IMG/VR virus record: IMGVR_UViG_3300015371_000001
Coordinates: 64,001-128,000 of that record
Reading direction: 5' to 3' (one strand)
Length of the DNA stretch: 64,000 bases
From: a virus
Below, one piece after another: positions 27,469 through 64,000 of the stretch. The position numbers were made by a program, and so were the translations under genes. Every line of letters begins with the position of its first letter. Within the stretch, counting starts at the first letter, position 1. The notes under the pieces are model-generated. The model did no database searches and was not told where the DNA came from. It was given only the letters and a program-made list of their open reading frames with translations.

Positions 27469-27536
27469 TCCCGATTCGATGCACATGGTGTTGTAGATCG
27501 TCTACATCGCCTAGTACGCTGGCTGTTGGAGGCAGC

Positions 27537-27872
27537 ATGAATCTTGTTCTTGACATCCTCGATTGGGTCCTTGCCGTCGTCATCCTGGTCATCTTCGTGT
27601 TCTTCACCGCGTCGGCGCTGTACCCGTGGTGGAACAAGACGAAGCAGGTTCGACTGCTCGGCTGGCCGACTCTGGTGGCATGGCTCGCCTCGTGGGCGAT
27701 TCTGTTCTACTTCGTGGACGTGATCGTGGACGGCTTCAAGGAGTTCGTCGGCTTCATGCTCGGGGTCGTTCTGATCCTCGGGATTGAGCGCATGTACCGG
27801 CGTGCCGATACAGCACATTTGAACTATTTGTTGAAGAACGCACCTAAGCGGGAGCCTGACGACGATGAGTGA
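27537..27872 (+). CDS. membrane protein (3 TM)
   Basis: GGAGGCAGC RBS; hydrophobic segments. Confidence 0.75.
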   Translation: MNLVLDILDWVLAVVILVIFVFFTASALYPWWNKTKQVRLLGWPTLVAWLASWAILFYFVDVIVDGFKEFVGFMLGVVLILGIERMYRRADTAHLNYLLKNAPKREPDDDE

Positions 27873-34260: not shown

Positions 34261-34289
34261 GCTGGAGCCCTATCTATTTGGAGGCAGCA

Positions 34290-49959: not shown

Positions 49960-50000
49960 CATCTCATAGACCTATTTGGCGAGCTTGGAGGCAGCCACCT

Positions 50001-50210
50001 ATGAGCATCATGGACACATTCCCTCAGTCGGCAGACGGACCGGATGAGGACGCCGTCCACAAGGCACGAGAACTGATCGCGAAGCACCTGTCAGCGGCGG
50101 TGATGGAGGCCATGCGTCTCCCGTACCCCGACAAGCCGGAGCAGGTGGCTGAGGAGATCACGACGGTCGTGCAGACGTTGGTCGTTTCGTGGAAGGGAGT
50201 GATCGTCTGA
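50001..50210 (+). CDS. hypothetical protein; best predicted target of the candidate sRNA
   Basis: RBS region 49978-49998 is complementary to 62048-62067. Confidence 0.7.
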   Translation: MSIMDTFPQSADGPDEDAVHKARELIAKHLSAAVMEAMRLPYPDKPEQVAEEITTVVQTLVVSWKGVIV

Positions 50211-50629: not shown

Positions 50630-50666
50630 GCAGTACGGAACTGCAAGAACTGAGTAGAAGGTAACC

Positions 50667-54852: not shown

Positions 54853-55106
54853 GAGCTATCCCGCTCGTCCTGCTGGCCATGTTGTTCATCGCTGCGGCAA
54901 TCTTCGTGGTCGCTCGGGTCATCCCGAGCAAGCGTCGCGAGGAGACCCGACAGTTGCGGGCGCAAGCTCACGCTCATGTCGCCACGTTGATGGCGATTGA
55001 GACGCACGCCAAGCAGGCTATCGACGCTGACCCGAGCGATGTGCTGGCTCAGCAGATCCAGTACGAACTACAAGGGCTCAAGAGAGAGCTTGGAGGCAGT
55101 GAATGA
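54849..55106 (+). CDS. TM + helical protein
   Basis: N-terminal TM; precedes the SPFH gene. Confidence 0.65.
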   Translation: MRAIPLVLLAMLFIAAAIFVVARVIPSKRREETRQLRAQAHAHVATLMAIETHAKQAIDADPSDVLAQQIQYELQGLKRELGGSE

Positions 55107-58003: not shown

Positions 58004-58086
58004 GCGTTGTTGAAGGTCGGCAACTGCTAATCTATGCTGTCTAGTAACACATGGTCTCTTTGGAGACTGAACTGGAGGCAGCACCC

Positions 58087-59485: not shown

Positions 59486-60098
59486 GCTCCGGAAGCCGAG
59501 TCCGGTCACCCTCGCCAACGAGAAGGTGCCCATCGTCGCGCTCTGCCGGTACCTGGGGATGGACCTGCCGGACTACACCTCCGGCAACATCAAGACGTAC
59601 TGCCCGTTCGGCGACGTGGAGCACTCCGATCAGGGGATGGAGGCTGCGTTCCGCGTCTACCCCGAGCCGAACAACGCCTACTGCTTCGCCTGTGGTCTGT
59701 TCTTCTCGCCGGTCAGCCTTGCGGCCAAGGCGTGGGACATGACGCGGCGAGAAGCTGCGGTCAATCTCTTGGATTGGATCGGGTTTAAACCGCTATCTCT
59801 GGCAGAGGAGTGGGAGAATGTCGTCAACCCGGTGCCGGTCATCGACAAGGAGTCGTTGGGGCTCGCACTCAGGGTGTATGTCGAGAGGATCAGCCCAGGG
59901 TGGGCTGCGCAAGAGGTGGAGGACGGCTATCCCCAGCGTCAACTGACCAGGTGTTTGGCGCTGCTCGATAGAGTCACGACAGAGGCGGAGGCGCAAGTAT
60001 GGCTGGCTCGCTGTCGTGAGGTCATGTCTGACGCGATAGGAGTAGCGACGGATGCCACGCAAGATCAAGCCGGTGCCAGGGTGGATCACCCTAGCTGA
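59472..60098 (+). CDS. CHC2 zinc-finger primase N-terminal domain protein (no TOPRIM)
   Basis: CPF...H.D...AF.VY....AYCFAC. Confidence 0.75.
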   Translation: MPSTRLRKPSPVTLANEKVPIVALCRYLGMDLPDYTSGNIKTYCPFGDVEHSDQGMEAAFRVYPEPNNAYCFACGLFFSPVSLAAKAWDMTRREAAVNLLDWIGFKPLSLAEEWENVVNPVPVIDKESLGLALRVYVERISPGWAAQEVEDGYPQRQLTRCLALLDRVTTEAEAQVWLARCREVMSDAIGVATDATQDQAGARVDHPS

Positions 60099-60291
60099 GG
60101 CGGCAGAGGAGCTAGGACTATCCAAACAAGCCGTCCACAAGTGGGTCAAAGACGACAAGTTCAAGACTCTGGCCACCCTAGGGAAGAAGCGAATCTACTG
60201 CGTACGACCAAAAGAGGTCGCGGAAATAAAGGCGGCGCGCGAGGCCGTTGCTCAGCTAAGACAGACTTCCCAGCCTGCGGGGAGCGACTGA
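60052..60291 (+). CDS. excisionase-like HTH DNA-binding protein
   Basis: WITLAEAAEELGLSKQAVHKWV. Confidence 0.8.
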   Translation: MPRKIKPVPGWITLAEAAEELGLSKQAVHKWVKDDKFKTLATLGKKRIYCVRPKEVAEIKAAREAVAQLRQTSQPAGSD

Positions 60292-60402
60292 TCCGGTCAC
60301 GGGTTACAGCCGAAAGAGCAGGAAGCGCTACACCGCTGTCAGGTGGGAGGGTGGGCGGTCCACCCGTACGCAACCACGTCAGCACAGGTCAAGGCCCGAG
60401 TT

Positions 60403-60430
60403 GCCCCAGGCGAGTAGGAGCCTGGGGCTT
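60403..60430 (+). terminator. stem-loop
   Basis: GCCCCAGGC / GCCTGGGGC followed by TT. Confidence 0.55.
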
Positions 60431-60493
60431 CACGATGTAGACGGTCGGCAACTAGGCGACAGGTACACTAGAGCGGTATGAAGGAGGCAGCAT

Positions 60494-60766
60494 ATGGCTG
60501 AGACAGTCCAGGGGTTTAAGTTCCCTAGTCGGTATCCGTGGGACCAGTGGGCCAACGGTGAGCAGTGGAAGTTGAAGCAGGGCGAGGACTTCCATGTGGG
60601 TACCAAGTCGTTCCGAGGAGCGGCCTGGCAGCACGCTCGGAGTAACAACCTTGGTCTCAGCACGTCCGTTGTTCGCGAGGACGGGGCGACCTACATGGTG
60701 GTTCAGTTCTCCAAGTCTGAGTCGGACCGGATTAGTCCGGGGTGGTCATCGACCCCCGAAGGTTGA
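60494..60766 (+). CDS. hypothetical protein (YPWD.W.NG..W.L..G.DF; possibly DNA-binding)
   Basis: AAGGAGGCAGC RBS. Confidence 0.75.
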   Translation: MAETVQGFKFPSRYPWDQWANGEQWKLKQGEDFHVGTKSFRGAAWQHARSNNLGLSTSVVREDGATYMVVQFSKSESDRISPGWSSTPEG

Positions 60767-60789
60767 CATCTGTCTACCTGAGCTATTAT
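60763..60789 (+). promoter_or_regulatory. sigma-70-type promoter candidate
   Basis: TTGACA at 60763 and TATTAT at 60784 (15-nt spacer, shorter than ideal). Confidence 0.4.
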
Positions 60790-60809
60790 GGGCTCAGGAG
60801 GCAGTAATC

Positions 60810-61382
60810 ATGACTAATCACACACAAAACCGAGGGCGCGTTGCGCTCCTCAAGCTCCTCAGGATTCCGCTGTGGGTGGCGGTCGCCGCTTTGATGACTC
60901 CGACCTTGTCGAGCGCCGATGAGTCGTTGTCGGCACGGCAGGTGACTTCGGTCCCGCAGGCGACGCCTGATTTCAAGTCCAGCAATACGGTCGTGTTCGA
61001 TTTGGCTCCGTCGGTCGACGGTGCCTGGAAGGTCGGCGCGGCGGTTCACTCGATGGAGAACAAGGCACCGGCTCTGCCGAACCTGATCATCGGGAACTGT
61101 GGGGCTCACCCGAGCGCCGGATGCGTCAAGGTGAATCAGATCAATAAGGCCAAGCCGTGGTGGTACCGCTGGGACACCCAGGAGGCCATCGACTACGGCA
61201 AGATCACCCTCAACGCGCGACACGGGAAGTCCAAGCGCGCCTCGTGTGACGCCACGGCTCAGGTCATCGCTATCGTGGCCCACCACAGGCGAGGCAAGGG
61301 CTGTACTCGGGTCAACGCTCCGGCGTCAGCCAAGGAGTTGGGTGGGGCGGCAGCCTTGGCGATTCAGAACGCCTACAACTAG
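60810..61382 (+). CDS. secreted protein
   Basis: Signal peptide; GGAGGCAG RBS; paired Cys residues. Confidence 0.7.
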   Translation: MTNHTQNRGRVALLKLLRIPLWVAVAALMTPTLSSADESLSARQVTSVPQATPDFKSSNTVVFDLAPSVDGAWKVGAAVHSMENKAPALPNLIIGNCGAHPSAGCVKVNQINKAKPWWYRWDTQEAIDYGKITLNARHGKSKRASCDATAQVIAIVAHHRRGKGCTRVNAPASAKELGGAAALAIQNAYN

Positions 61383-61403
61383 GGGAAGTCTCCGCAAAAG
61401 CCG

Positions 61404-61625
61404 ATGATCTACCTAGGGGTAGCTGTGGCTATTCCGGCTCTCCTCGCCCTTTGGTATCACCTACTACTCGTTTTGGAGAGAAGGGACCGGACGTGGTTCA
61501 GAAAACAGCCACGGCACCGACAACGACGGCGCTCGCGCCGACGGCTGATCAGACCGGCGTTCTCTGGCCTGGTGGTCGGCCTGATGCTGGCGTGGGTGGC
61601 GGCTGGAATCTGGGCTTCAGGATGA
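61404..61625 (+). CDS. small 2-TM protein
   Basis: Two hydrophobic segments around an Arg-rich loop. Confidence 0.55.
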   Translation: MIYLGVAVAIPALLALWYHLLLVLERRDRTWFRKQPRHRQRRRSRRRLIRPAFSGLVVGLMLAWVAAGIWASG

Positions 61626-61765
61626 CGGACCAGGCTCACTCGGAGGGTAGTCACCAGCCGAGGGAGTCGTCGGTCCGTTGTCTGCGTTGTCTGGTGCGGA
61701 ACACCTACAACGTGCATGGGATCTGTGACCGTTGTGGACCGGAGACTTGCGACTTCTGCCGGTAG
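61622..61765 (+). CDS. small Zn-finger protein
   Basis: CLRC, CDRC, CDFC. Confidence 0.5.
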   Translation: MTDQAHSEGSHQPRESSVRCLRCLVRNTYNVHGICDRCGPETCDFCR

Positions 61766-61808
61766 ATATTCTTGGCCTCATCGTCTAAGATTGCGGTGGA
61801 GGCAGCAG

Positions 61809-62015
61809 ATGATCACACACGCACCGCGCAACCCGGATGTCACTCAGTGCGGTCAGGAATTGACCAAGGTGGCGACCGCGTACAACCCAACGTGCTTCAG
61901 GTGTAAGCACAAGGAGCAGCGGCGTCTGAGGGAGTGGCGAGAGGCCAACGACCCCACGGAGGGCCGTGACGAACGACCCACACCTTCGACGCACTGGCCC
62001 AGGCAGGATGCATGA
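61809..62015 (+). CDS. small Zn-finger protein
   Basis: H...CG...TC..C; GGAGGCAGC RBS. Confidence 0.6.
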   Translation: MITHAPRNPDVTQCGQELTKVATAYNPTCFRCKHKEQRRLREWREANDPTEGRDERPTPSTHWPRQDA

Positions 62016-62029
62016 CGTACGCTGGGTAC

Positions 62030-62155
62030 GTAGCTCAGTCGTGCAGTGTGGCTGCCTCCAACTCGCCTAGCGGCGAGCCAGTTATCACACGGCGTTCTGA
62101 GCGCCAGTGGCCCCGCGCCCGGTTTCTCCGGAGAGCGCGGGGCCGCTCTTTTTTT
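62030..62155 (+). ncRNA. candidate small RNA antisense to the GGAGGCAG(C/T) RBS motif
   Basis: Intergenic; carries GTGGCTGCCTCCAACTCGCC, a nested stem structure and a GC stem + T7 terminator. Confidence 0.6.
62106..62155 (+). terminator. intrinsic terminator
   Basis: AGTGGCCCCGCGC / GCGCGGGGCCGCT stem followed by TTTTTTT. Confidence 0.85.
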
Positions 62156-62196
62156 GAACTGCTAGAGAAATATGTCTCCGGTGAGTAGAAGGTGGT

Positions 62197-62481
62197 GTGC
62201 CTGGTCGCTGCGCTGGTTGTGGGGAGACGGACTCCTCGTGCAAGCGAGTGAAGCAGCACGTCATGAACTGCGCGTCGTACCTGGATCTGTTCCGGTCTCA
62301 TCCGGAGCGAGCGCTGGAGCCGAAGGCGGAGTATGACCGGTGGCGTCGAGAGGACATGTCGCCGGAGGCGAAGGATCAGCGGAAGGCCAAGCGGCTGGCT
62401 GGCACCTTCGCCCGTCTCGACCGAGAGCGGGACAAGCAGGCTAGGCGGTGGGAGACCCCGCCCGATCCTCTGGAGGACTGA
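62197..62481 (+). CDS. Zn-finger-like protein
   Basis: CAGC...H...C. Confidence 0.65.
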   Translation: MPGRCAGCGETDSSCKRVKQHVMNCASYLDLFRSHPERALEPKAEYDRWRREDMSPEAKDQRKAKRLAGTFARLDRERDKQARRWETPPDPLED

Positions 62482-62738
62482 TGTCGCGTAGTGCGTCGAT
62501 GAAGCAGAGTCGACAAGACAAGCTGGACCGGATCTTCAAGGGCCGTCGGTGGCGGCTGGAGCGTGAGGTCCATCTGCCGGAGGGTCAGGTCTTTCAGACT
62601 CCCCTCGGAACGAAGGGCCGACACGGGTATCTGATCTTCGATCCGGACGACCCTGGCACGAAGTACGTGGTTGGCGCTAGGCTCATGCGCCTGGTCCACG
62701 ATGAGTACGACCAGGACCTTCCAATCCCGAACAGCTAG
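62481..62738 (+). CDS. hypothetical protein
   Basis: TGATG coupling; RBS GGAGG. Confidence 0.65.
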   Translation: MSRSASMKQSRQDKLDRIFKGRRWRLEREVHLPEGQVFQTPLGTKGRHGYLIFDPDDPGTKYVVGARLMRLVHDEYDQDLPIPNS

Positions 62739-62831
62739 GGTTATCGTACGGACATCCGTCCGGGGGCGACGGTGTTGATCTTCGGCAACCTGATTCAGTA
62801 GGGTCTGGTCCTGTTCAGGAGGCAGCCAGTT

Positions 62832-63536
62832 GTGAACGCTTATCTCGATGACGAGACGCTGACCGAGGTCGACCCGTACGCGGCCCCAGCCAACGACGAG
62901 GAGGTGTTCAGGAAGTACTACCGGTACGTCCAACACCTTGTCGGCAAGCTCGGTGTTCCGGAGGGGATGAAGGAGGACGTAGCCGCTGACATCTTGTGTC
63001 GCTTCTACGAGCGTCACATGTTGGAGGAGTACGACCCAGAGCTTGAGTTCGAGATCGACGGACGGAAGCGACCGGCGCGGTTCCTGACGTTCCTGTCCGG
63101 CTTCGTGACCACCTACACCCTGGGGAAGAAGGAACGTCATCTGAAGCGTGAGGGCCGGGAGCCCAAGATCGCTGACGCACCGTATCGAGACACCGGGTCT
63201 CCCTGGATTGAGATGTTCGGCCCGGTCCAGCCGTCGGACCACTCCGAGGTAGAAGCAGCGGATCTGATCTCGTGCATCCGCGCCTTCCTTGTTGAGGTGC
63301 CGCGCAAGTCGGATCGTGACCGTTGTGACCTCCCCCGGCTGTTCGATCTCGTCACTGAGATGACTTGGAACGACGGCAAGATCGACGCCAAGGAGTTGAT
63401 GCGCGAGTTCGGGATCTCGTACTCCGCGATCCACTCGTGGCTGCGCTACCTCCAGACGCAGGTTCAGGAGGCGATGGAGTCGTTGGGCTTCGAGCGCACT
63501 GAGCGGCGTGGCTGGGTTCTAGCTCGGCCTTGCTGA
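62832..63536 (+). CDS. divergent sigma-factor-like protein
   Basis: FRKYY..V...V.K.GV....EDV..DI...F.TFL (region-2-like) and C-terminal HTH KEL..EFGIS.S.I..W. Confidence 0.6.
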   Translation: MNAYLDDETLTEVDPYAAPANDEEVFRKYYRYVQHLVGKLGVPEGMKEDVAADILCRFYERHMLEEYDPELEFEIDGRKRPARFLTFLSGFVTTYTLGKKERHLKREGREPKIADAPYRDTGSPWIEMFGPVQPSDHSEVEAADLISCIRAFLVEVPRKSDRDRCDLPRLFDLVTEMTWNDGKIDAKELMREFGISYSAIHSWLRYLQTQVQEAMESLGFERTERRGWVLARPC

Positions 63537-64000
63537 TGCGCTTCTACGGCCACGAGAAGCAGCGGCAAGCCCTGGAGTCGCACCTACCGCCAGTCGTGCT
63601 CCTACGAGGCCCACAGAGCGTTGGGAAGTACACCTTGGGTCTCTGGCTCCACGAGTACCACCGGTTCTCCTCGTCTGACCTGAGATTGGTCGAGAAGCTG
63701 TACGTGGAGGAGGCCCGTGATCTACAGCGATTCGCTGTAACGTCCCCGGTAGGCCGACACAAGCTGGCACTGGCCCGGCTGGACGGCGCGAGCGAACCGG
63801 CGCTCAACGCCATGCTCAAGACGTTGGAGGAGCCGCCGCCGACGATCAGCTTCGTGCTGACCGCGTCGGACTCCACGTTGGACACCGTGATGTCGAGGGC
63901 TCACCTCGTCAACATGGGATTGCTCGCCGATGAGGATGTCCGAGGAGTCTTGGTCCAGCGGATGGGACTTGACCCGGCTCTCGCCGCCAGGGCCGCACGG
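63536..64000 (+). CDS. DNA polymerase III clamp-loader delta'/tau-like AAA+ subunit (partial, runs off window)
   Basis: FYGHE, LLRGPQSVGK, ALNAMLKTLEEPP...FVL...L.TV.SR. Confidence 0.85.
   Translation, partial: MRFYGHEKQRQALESHLPPVVLLRGPQSVGKYTLGLWLHEYHRFSSSDLRLVEKLYVEEARDLQRFAVTSPVGRHKLALARLDGASEPALNAMLKTLEEPPPTISFVLTASDSTLDTVMSRAHLVNMGLLADEDVRGVLVQRMGLDPALAARAAR

Follow-up and report, generated by a model that had tools for sequence, protein, structure and literature searches.

A candidate phage small RNA carrying the antisense of a ribosome-binding motif shared by about 30 genes

The locus, its fold and its coding potential

The window analyzed here, a stretch of 64,000 nucleotides, comprises bases 64001-128000 of a 141,276-bp IMG/VR phage record, and positions refer to the window unless they are marked as genome positions. 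The uncultured soil phage has a G+C content of 61.5%, 37 tRNA genes, and nearly all of its genes on the + strand. Its nearest cultured relative found is Microbacterium phage Magritte, a distant one that infects Microbacterium foliorum, with 33% identity for one protein; gene 118 of Magritte (L019 26553-28184) is annotated as a Ro-like RNA-binding protein. DNA nearly identical to that of the phage is present in rhizosphere metagenomes, and one wastewater run from 2025 (X9) also yielded short identical contigs; its 150-nt contigs cover 61712-61855 and 61949-62098. As these contigs are identical to the window or 1 base different, the rhizosphere samples are not the only place where the same phage or a very close strain is found. 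Although X9 carries an RNA-Seq label, it was rated probably DNA and was used as contigs only; none of the runs recorded as RNA contains the element region. All contigs containing the element described below (L006-L008; runs X1, X2, and X9) are identical to the window across it, a DNA search of the phages collection gave no match, and the collections searched held no close relatives for a covariation analysis. The element and its surroundings are made up of the following features:

62016-62196, + strand: intergenic gap with the element, flanked by genes 61809-62015 and 62197-62481 as called on identical JGI contigs
62030-62155, + strand: candidate non-coding RNA of ~125 nt, with an uncertain 5' end and a 3' end within the U-tract
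62033-62102, + strand: hairpin 1, an irregular long stem whose internal loop displays the seed; minimum-energy and centroid folds agree
62055-62061, + strand: predicted unpaired seed CCUCCAA, with an unpaired probability of 0.7-0.9 and an opening energy of 0.34 kcal/mol
62106-62155, + strand: rho-independent terminator, a G+C-rich hairpin (62106-62147, ~-36 kcal/mol) followed by C and T7 (62149-62155)
62018-62023, + strand: weak -10-like hexamer TACGCT, which fits TAnnnT only, with no -35 element and without the TTGACnnnCGGCAAC signature
62012-62188, + strand: 58-codon open reading frame (ORF) spanning the element, Arg/Ser-rich, whose start overlaps the stop codon of the upstream gene as ATGA

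An N-terminus conserved in relatives, MPxRCAGCGETD, establishes the GTG at 62197 as the start of the downstream gene. These relatives of the downstream 94-aa gene (L002, L004, and L005) are only 42-49% identical, and at the syntenic place they have no gap upstream of the homologous gene. Searches with the upstream gene and the DnaB-like gene returned no relatives from the viral contigs, and Pfam and PHROG gave no function for the genes flanking the element or for gene 50001, which is discussed below.

The region 62030-62155 is predicted to fold into two hairpins at -66.5 kcal/mol, and for the longer stretch 62016-62160 the value is -75.2 kcal/mol (z = -5.1). Hairpin 1 alone is marginal against shuffled sequences (z = -1.75; 10 of 200 shuffles fold equally well). 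The stems that a first-pass annotation of this DNA had picked out, GCUCAG/CUGAGC, GUGUG/CACAC, and CUCGCC/GGCGAG, are all present in the minimum-energy fold, and CCUCCAA is left unpaired there, as had been claimed. The hairpin at the 3' side is directly followed by the U-tract, with no U-run on the opposite strand. The first-pass annotation had described it as the clearest U-tract terminator in the window, and in the whole 141-kb genome its T7 is the only coding-strand stretch of at least six T. This terminator is one of two canonical terminators in the genome. The other, at genome 47820-47870 (L010), consists of a -29.9 kcal/mol hairpin followed by T5 and likewise stands at the end of a long non-coding region. 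The phage seems to employ U-tract terminators only for non-coding RNAs.

Searches of 60000-64000 and of the counterpart element described below against Rfam (E<=10) returned no family match, which covers the c4 and 6C RNAs if these are in Rfam. ARAGORN found no tRNA in the window, and no Rfam tRNA match was obtained either; any likeness to tRNA is limited to a D-arm-like word of 10-11 nt, GTAGCTCAGT, that is shared with the tRNAs of the phage. At 62029-62039, CGTAGCTCAGT matches exactly the D-arm word found in several tRNAs of the phage, and since no cloverleaf follows, it is either a chance match or the remnant of a tRNA 5' end. Elsewhere in the phage, a structured, ORF-free stretch of ~470 nt (genome 7555-8035; L009 2556-3036) follows TTGACC-N17-TAGAGT within the tRNA array; no Rfam family matches it, and its 10-mer TGCCTCCAAC also occurs in the element, at 62053-62062.

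Could the gap encode a small protein instead? The frame of 62012-62188 would be translated by coupling to the upstream gene, whose stop codon it overlaps by ATGA; it stays open throughout, fills the gap, ends 8 nt before the next start codon, and is annotated as a gene on one JGI contig out of three identical ones. Its coding score is 0.05 per codon, however, versus 0.43 ± 0.20 for small genes; its GC3 is 0.64 versus ~0.78; and its only homologue among 5.8 billion proteins is itself. The frame shows neither genome-like codon usage nor homologues elsewhere, and the terminator hairpin and the T7 lie inside the frame. We consider a protein product very unlikely. Minus-strand ORFs across the element showed no coding signal. 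Overall, the element appears to be a genuine non-coding RNA feature, defined above all by its antisense copy of a ribosome-binding motif.

The ribosome-binding motif, its antisense copy, and the transcription unit

The word GGAGGCAGC occurs 11 times on the + strand of the window and once on the - strand, at 62051-62059 (shuffle mean 1.17; none of 100 shuffles reached 12), and over the whole genome, the counts are 17 and 1. Ten of the 11 window copies end 0-5 nt upstream of an ATG or GTG. The word keeps its place beside GGAGG at varying distances from the start codon and hence extends the Shine-Dalgarno (SD) sequence; it is not a start-codon context. The shorter form GGAGGCAG is by far the commonest GGAGGNNN word, with 35 copies on the coding strand versus 2 on the opposite one, and the motif GGAGGCAG(C/U) constitutes a private SD extension before ~30 genes of the phage. 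This extension presumably adds no pairing to the canonical 16S rRNA tail. It may exist for a reason that has nothing to do with the RNA discussed here, for example, a preference of the host ribosome or a protein regulator. The motif copies and the antisense sites that matter here are the following:

62051-62059, + strand: antisense of the ribosome-binding motif GGAGGCAGC, reading GCTGCCTCC; sole - strand match in the genome
62048-62067, + strand: 20-nt stretch complementary to the leader of gene 50001 (14 perfect pairs, a 1-nt bulge, 6 more)
49978-49998, + strand: best predicted target, the leader and ribosome-binding site (RBS) of gene 50001-50210, whose 69-aa product has no family match
27528-27536, + strand: motif copy directly before the ATG at 27537; 12 bp pairing with the element (27525-27536)
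60483-60491, + strand: motif of gene 60494, which opens the unit ending at the terminator
60797-60805, + strand: variant motif GGAGGCAGT of gene 60810, within the unit ending at the terminator
61798-61806, + strand: motif of gene 61809-62015, immediately upstream of the element
62818-62826, + strand: motif of gene 62832; 11 bp pairing with the element

The motif also precedes genes at genome 46640, 49901, 57709, and 61499. As this genome stretch of 46-62 kb, which is found immediately upstream of the tape-measure-sized ORF in the window and is provisionally structural, has motif-bearing genes as well, the earlier label of an "early/middle regulon" is a loose one. A smaller second leader family was also seen: GAACTGCTAGA and TGAGTAGAAGG are common to the leader of gene 62197 (62156-62193) and a leader at genome 48985-49008, and TGAGTAGAAGGT recurs before gene 50667 (50651-50662).

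Within the gap, the element bears GTGGCTGCCTCCAACTCGCC at 62048-62067. The first-pass annotation had described a lone antisense copy of the motif there, and the single - strand match to GGAGGCAGC, in the window as in the genome, bears this out; that the copy does not serve as an RBS on the - strand is likewise upheld, as no ATG, GTG, or TTG follows the motif on that strand. Taken alone, a single antisense copy is not surprising: The 8-mer CTGCCTCC is expected in ~3 copies per strand and was observed in 2. The copy in the element is the sole one in the genome that lies outside a long open frame with high GC3.

The pairing with the leader of gene 50001 goes far beyond this background. The claimed 20-bp duplex with one bulge was recovered as 14 + 6 bp, where all 14 nt of 62048-62061 are complementary to 49985-49998 (blastn-short E = 0.075), and the duplex reaches -43.7 kcal/mol versus -18.5 ± 4.3 kcal/mol for random 45-nt windows. 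The other pairings proposed earlier were also found, with 12 bp at 27525-27536 and 11 bp at 34278 and 62818, as were the 11 bp at 55090, of which one pair is a G-U. Pairing extends past the motif core only at the 50001 leader; the other sites pair over 9-12 bp, within the tail of random duplex energies. The predicted accessible seed is complementary to the translation-initiation regions (TIRs) of the targets, and binding at or below -8 kcal/mol is predicted for 91% of the motif-bearing TIRs versus 23% of other TIRs and 20% of random windows, a duplex/cofold difference that follows from the shared word alone and hence is no independent support.

Two readings that dispense with an RNA-level regulator have to be weighed against these data. 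The gap might hold a plain operon terminator, with the 90 nt before it being a spacer that contains an inverted leader fragment without function at the RNA level. Such a relic would agree with one antisense 9-mer being about the chance expectation, with the 20-mer reading like an ordinary leader of the family GCGAG(C)TTGGAGGCAGCC on the - strand, and with the z of only -1.75 for hairpin 1; conservation in close relatives is not displayed, because all contigs found are 100% identical. It does not explain, however, why the seed is displayed in a loop, nor the findings in the distant relative described below, and we regard it as rather improbable. Alternatively, the inverted 20-bp repeat (49978-49998 and 62048-62067) could act as DNA, as a binding site for a protein or as a recombination site, given its two inverted copies 12 kb apart. 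Since there are only these two copies, without palindromic half-sites, and the contigs contain no joints or inversions, we deem this extremely improbable.

How would the element be transcribed? The phage has a promoter-like class TTGACnnnCGGCAAC-N9-10-TAnnnT with about nine + strand sites (58018, 60446, and 62783 among them), which in full reads TTGAC(n3)CGGCAAC-N9-10-TAnnnT with an invariant spacer block CGGCAAC. Several of its sites lie upstream of motif-type leaders or of non-coding regions, and + strand members were located as follows:

58005-58040, 60436-60469, and 62773-62804, + strand: promoter-like class sites in the window
Genome 572, 5816, 46602, 47892, and 48413, + strand: further sites of the same class

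Upstream of the element itself, a scan with the promoter tool returned nothing, and no CGGCAAC-class site is found there. The -10 element that had been suggested at 62018 is present as TACGCT but amounts to a bare TAnnnT, with no -35 and outside the phage's clear promoter class. Because no credible promoter of its own lies upstream, a 3' untranslated region (3'UTR) and a free-standing gene are equally likely sources of the RNA. Going upstream, the first clear promoter-like site is at 60446-60469, with no terminator from there to 62106, and the RNA may accordingly form the 3' end of a unit beginning near 60446, in which all three RBSs (60483, 60797, and 61798) carry the motif.

These last observations also open a cis-acting reading, in which the element is the 3'UTR of the 60494-62015 operon mRNA and its anti-SD loop folds onto the operon's own RBSs (60483, 60797, and 61798), limiting translation of the operon or creating an RNase III site. 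The promoter-like site without an intervening terminator, the motif in all three RBSs, and the predicted binding to the TIRs of 61809 (-13.5 kcal/mol) and 60494 (-12.1 kcal/mol) argue for it, and the icaR mRNA provides a precedent (PMC3868564). Against it, the longest complementarity is to the 50001 leader, 12 kb away, and not to the element's own operon. We hold the cis-acting reading to be unlikely.

An antisense element in a distant relative

A relative of 133,696 bp, here called G001 and recognized through a distant homologue of the downstream gene, was read over its whole sequence; the proteins that it shares with the present phage are 30-48% identical. In G001, GGAGGCAG is found 27 times on the coding strand versus 5 times on the opposite one, mostly just before start codons, and among 14 related genomes or records, GGAGGCAG is the dominant SD extension only in the present phage (35:2) and in G001 (27:5). 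Magritte and eleven other IMG/VR relatives, found by a search with the RecA-like protein and, for ten of them, covered over the whole record, showed no clear enrichment of GGAGGCAG.

The coding strand of G001 contains exactly one run of six or more T, just as in the present phage. When the 130 nt upstream of the two T-runs were compared, exactly one 8-mer was common to both, and this was CTGCCTCC, located 89 nt before the run in the present phage and 93 nt before it in G001. With 2.96 and 2.49 copies expected per strand, the chance of finding this pre-named 8-mer in both windows is ~6e-6, a figure that gives the order of magnitude only, because the window definition was chosen after the data had been seen. 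The copy at the T-run is the sole CTGCCTCC in G001 that lies outside a long coding frame. CCTCC is absent from nine T-run windows of six motif-less relatives, which served as a negative control. The first-pass annotation had named as a counter-case related phages that keep the RBS motif and lack the antisense copy; G001, the only motif-keeping relative found, does have an exposed antisense ~90 nt before its sole long T-run.

The G001 element (G001 57,750-57,582, coding strand) contains no ORF, a further point against a small protein at the locus, and its fold has z = -4.2, with AACUGCCUCC predicted as a fully unpaired apical loop; in the element of the present phage, the seed lies in an internal loop. 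G001 furthermore has a second leader motif, (GA)CTCTCAC, 3-12 nt upstream of the SD at ~25 starts, with a strand bias of 39:5 for CTCTCAC:

L013 17505, coding strand: (GA)CTCTCAC leader example
G001 65212 and 28099, coding strand: (GA)CTCTCAC leader examples

This word might mark where transcription starts or where the RNA is processed, or it might be an RNA target. A second loop of the G001 element, GUGAGA, is the antisense of CTCTCAC and lies 46 nt downstream of the first loop, such that the two loops stand in the right order for antiparallel pairing with the leaders. Because the loops are 46 nt apart versus 3-12 nt between the leader motifs, the G001 element is not a plain inverted copy of a leader. 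A relic at the locus of the present phage would leave unexplained this second anti-leader loop with its non-leader spacing, as well as the same 8-mer at the same distance from the sole long T-run in G001 and the absence of CCTCC from the control windows. A DNA-level site is also hard to reconcile with the G001 counterpart, which uses separate loops to pair with RNA motifs.

The G001 element itself matches best, over 11 + 9 nt, the leader of the gene next to it. That the best match is a neighboring gene's leader in G001 likewise favors the cis-acting reading, whereas the T7 run and a TTGACA-N18-TAAGGT (seen by eye and below the tool's criteria) that separate the G001 element from this leader argue against it. 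Upstream of the G001 element, a promoter-like TTGACG-N18-TAACGT was also seen by eye, again below the criteria of the tool. No homology links the best target in one phage to that in the other, and the orthology of motif-bearing genes was uninformative, with one detectable pair only.

Since the two elements are neither syntenic nor alignable, their homology is unproven, and they represent two cases only. In these two cases, the seed is conserved while the rest of the RNA diverges, with CTGCCTCC as the only shared 8-mer. An 8-nt seed that is identical in elements that otherwise do not align is what may be expected of a seed with many targets, which would stay frozen. Covariation between seed and targets, which the first-pass annotation had proposed to look for in related phages, was not what G001 displayed: Position 9 of the motif is A/G there and faces an A of the RNA, unpaired. 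The earlier statement that position 9 preserves pairing accordingly applies to the present phage, where C/T faces G, and does not extend to G001.

Some candidates from wider searches were set aside. In L004, which is without the motif, a CTGCCTCC in a gap was not counted, as it is located directly 5' of what is probably a small Zn-ribbon-like ORF. A scan of viral contigs with the pattern GGCTGCCTCCAACTCGCC gave one match, in an unrelated coding region, and a scan with CTGCCTCC-N80-100-T7-SAAC gave 21 low-GC chance matches without the motif; the latter pattern does not fit G001.

A proposed riboregulator and its relation to known systems

We propose that the + strand of 62016-62155 gives rise to a small non-coding RNA of ~125-140 nt that would end at the genome's only long U-tract terminator, either as a free-standing transcript from a weak promoter or, equally likely, as the 3' end of the 60.4-62.0 kb operon transcript, left by processing or termination. 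Hairpin 1 would expose CCUCCAA within GCUGCCUCC, the antisense of GGAGGCAG(C/U), and the RNA would pair with motif-type translation-initiation regions and block the binding of 30S subunits there. Its pairing should be strongest at the 50001 leader (20 bp), with 9-12 bp elsewhere, and each phage may have a high-affinity primary target, namely the 50001 leader here and the adjacent gene in G001. The seed-bearing hairpin, the strong terminator, and the predicted open seed fit the anatomy of a small RNA. From the complementarity to the 50001 leader and the two-phage comparison, we infer that a base-pairing RNA that occludes motif-type RBSs is the most likely reading and probably a real riboregulator, albeit with considerable room for doubt. 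That the RNA accumulates, acts in trans, and represses its targets, and when it would do so, are inferred steps of this model, and a timing at an early-to-late switch is pure conjecture.

A wider idea is more tentative. One small RNA might address ~30 phage genes through the private 3-4-nt SD extension GGAGGCAG, which would then serve as the address label of a translational regulon; we see this as possible but less likely than not. On this reading, a regulon-wide riboregulator with a "frozen seed" would have been retained in two phages whose shared proteins are only 30-48% identical. If true, this would explain why dozens of phage genes share an SD extension that adds no pairing to the canonical 16S tail, and it would offer a simple pairing of seed and address label by which large actinophage-like genomes could time the expression of their genes. 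A seed and label of this kind could also be repurposed as an orthogonal translational switch.

Antisense RNAs that cover ribosome-binding sites are well known. To our knowledge, however, the phage antisense RNAs among them have one or two targets each, and we know of no global translational shut-off of phage genes except by a protein, RegA of phage T4. RegA binds the initiation regions of many early mRNAs at AU-rich sites and shuts off their translation. The candidate RNA shares with it the principle of one phage-encoded factor for many phage initiation regions, but RegA is a protein, whereas the effector proposed here is an RNA that recognizes its targets by base pairing; if the proposal is true, the RNA would be a counterpart of T4 RegA. 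A non-exhaustive search of the literature gave no description of a phage RNA that is aimed at a genome-wide private RBS motif.

The closest parallels each cover a part of the proposal. The c4 antisense RNA of phages P1 and P7, which covers an RBS, is likewise a phage-encoded small RNA whose loops pair around the RBS of a phage mRNA such that translation is blocked (PMC12197685), and it resembles the G001 element in having two separate complementary segments. Unlike the candidate RNA, for which ~30 genes are proposed, c4 is processed from the transcript of its own target and acts on one operon (icd-ant) in immunity. The 6C sRNA (B11) of high-GC Gram-positives is a chaperone-independent sRNA of Actinobacteria that binds several mRNAs by pairing its C-rich loops with G-rich mRNA regions (PMC6486639), which is akin to the seed pairing suggested here. 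It is a host gene with two conserved C-rich apical loops, however, whereas the present element carries a specific 8-9-mer that matches a phage-private motif. Finally, in the icaR mRNA of Staphylococcus aureus, an anti-SD word in the 3'UTR pairs with the SD, blocks initiation, and creates an RNase III substrate (PMC3868564), a scheme that would fit if the element remains joined to its operon mRNA. The icaR 3'UTR acts on its own mRNA only, whereas the best match of the phage element lies 12 kb away and its target word is common to many genes.
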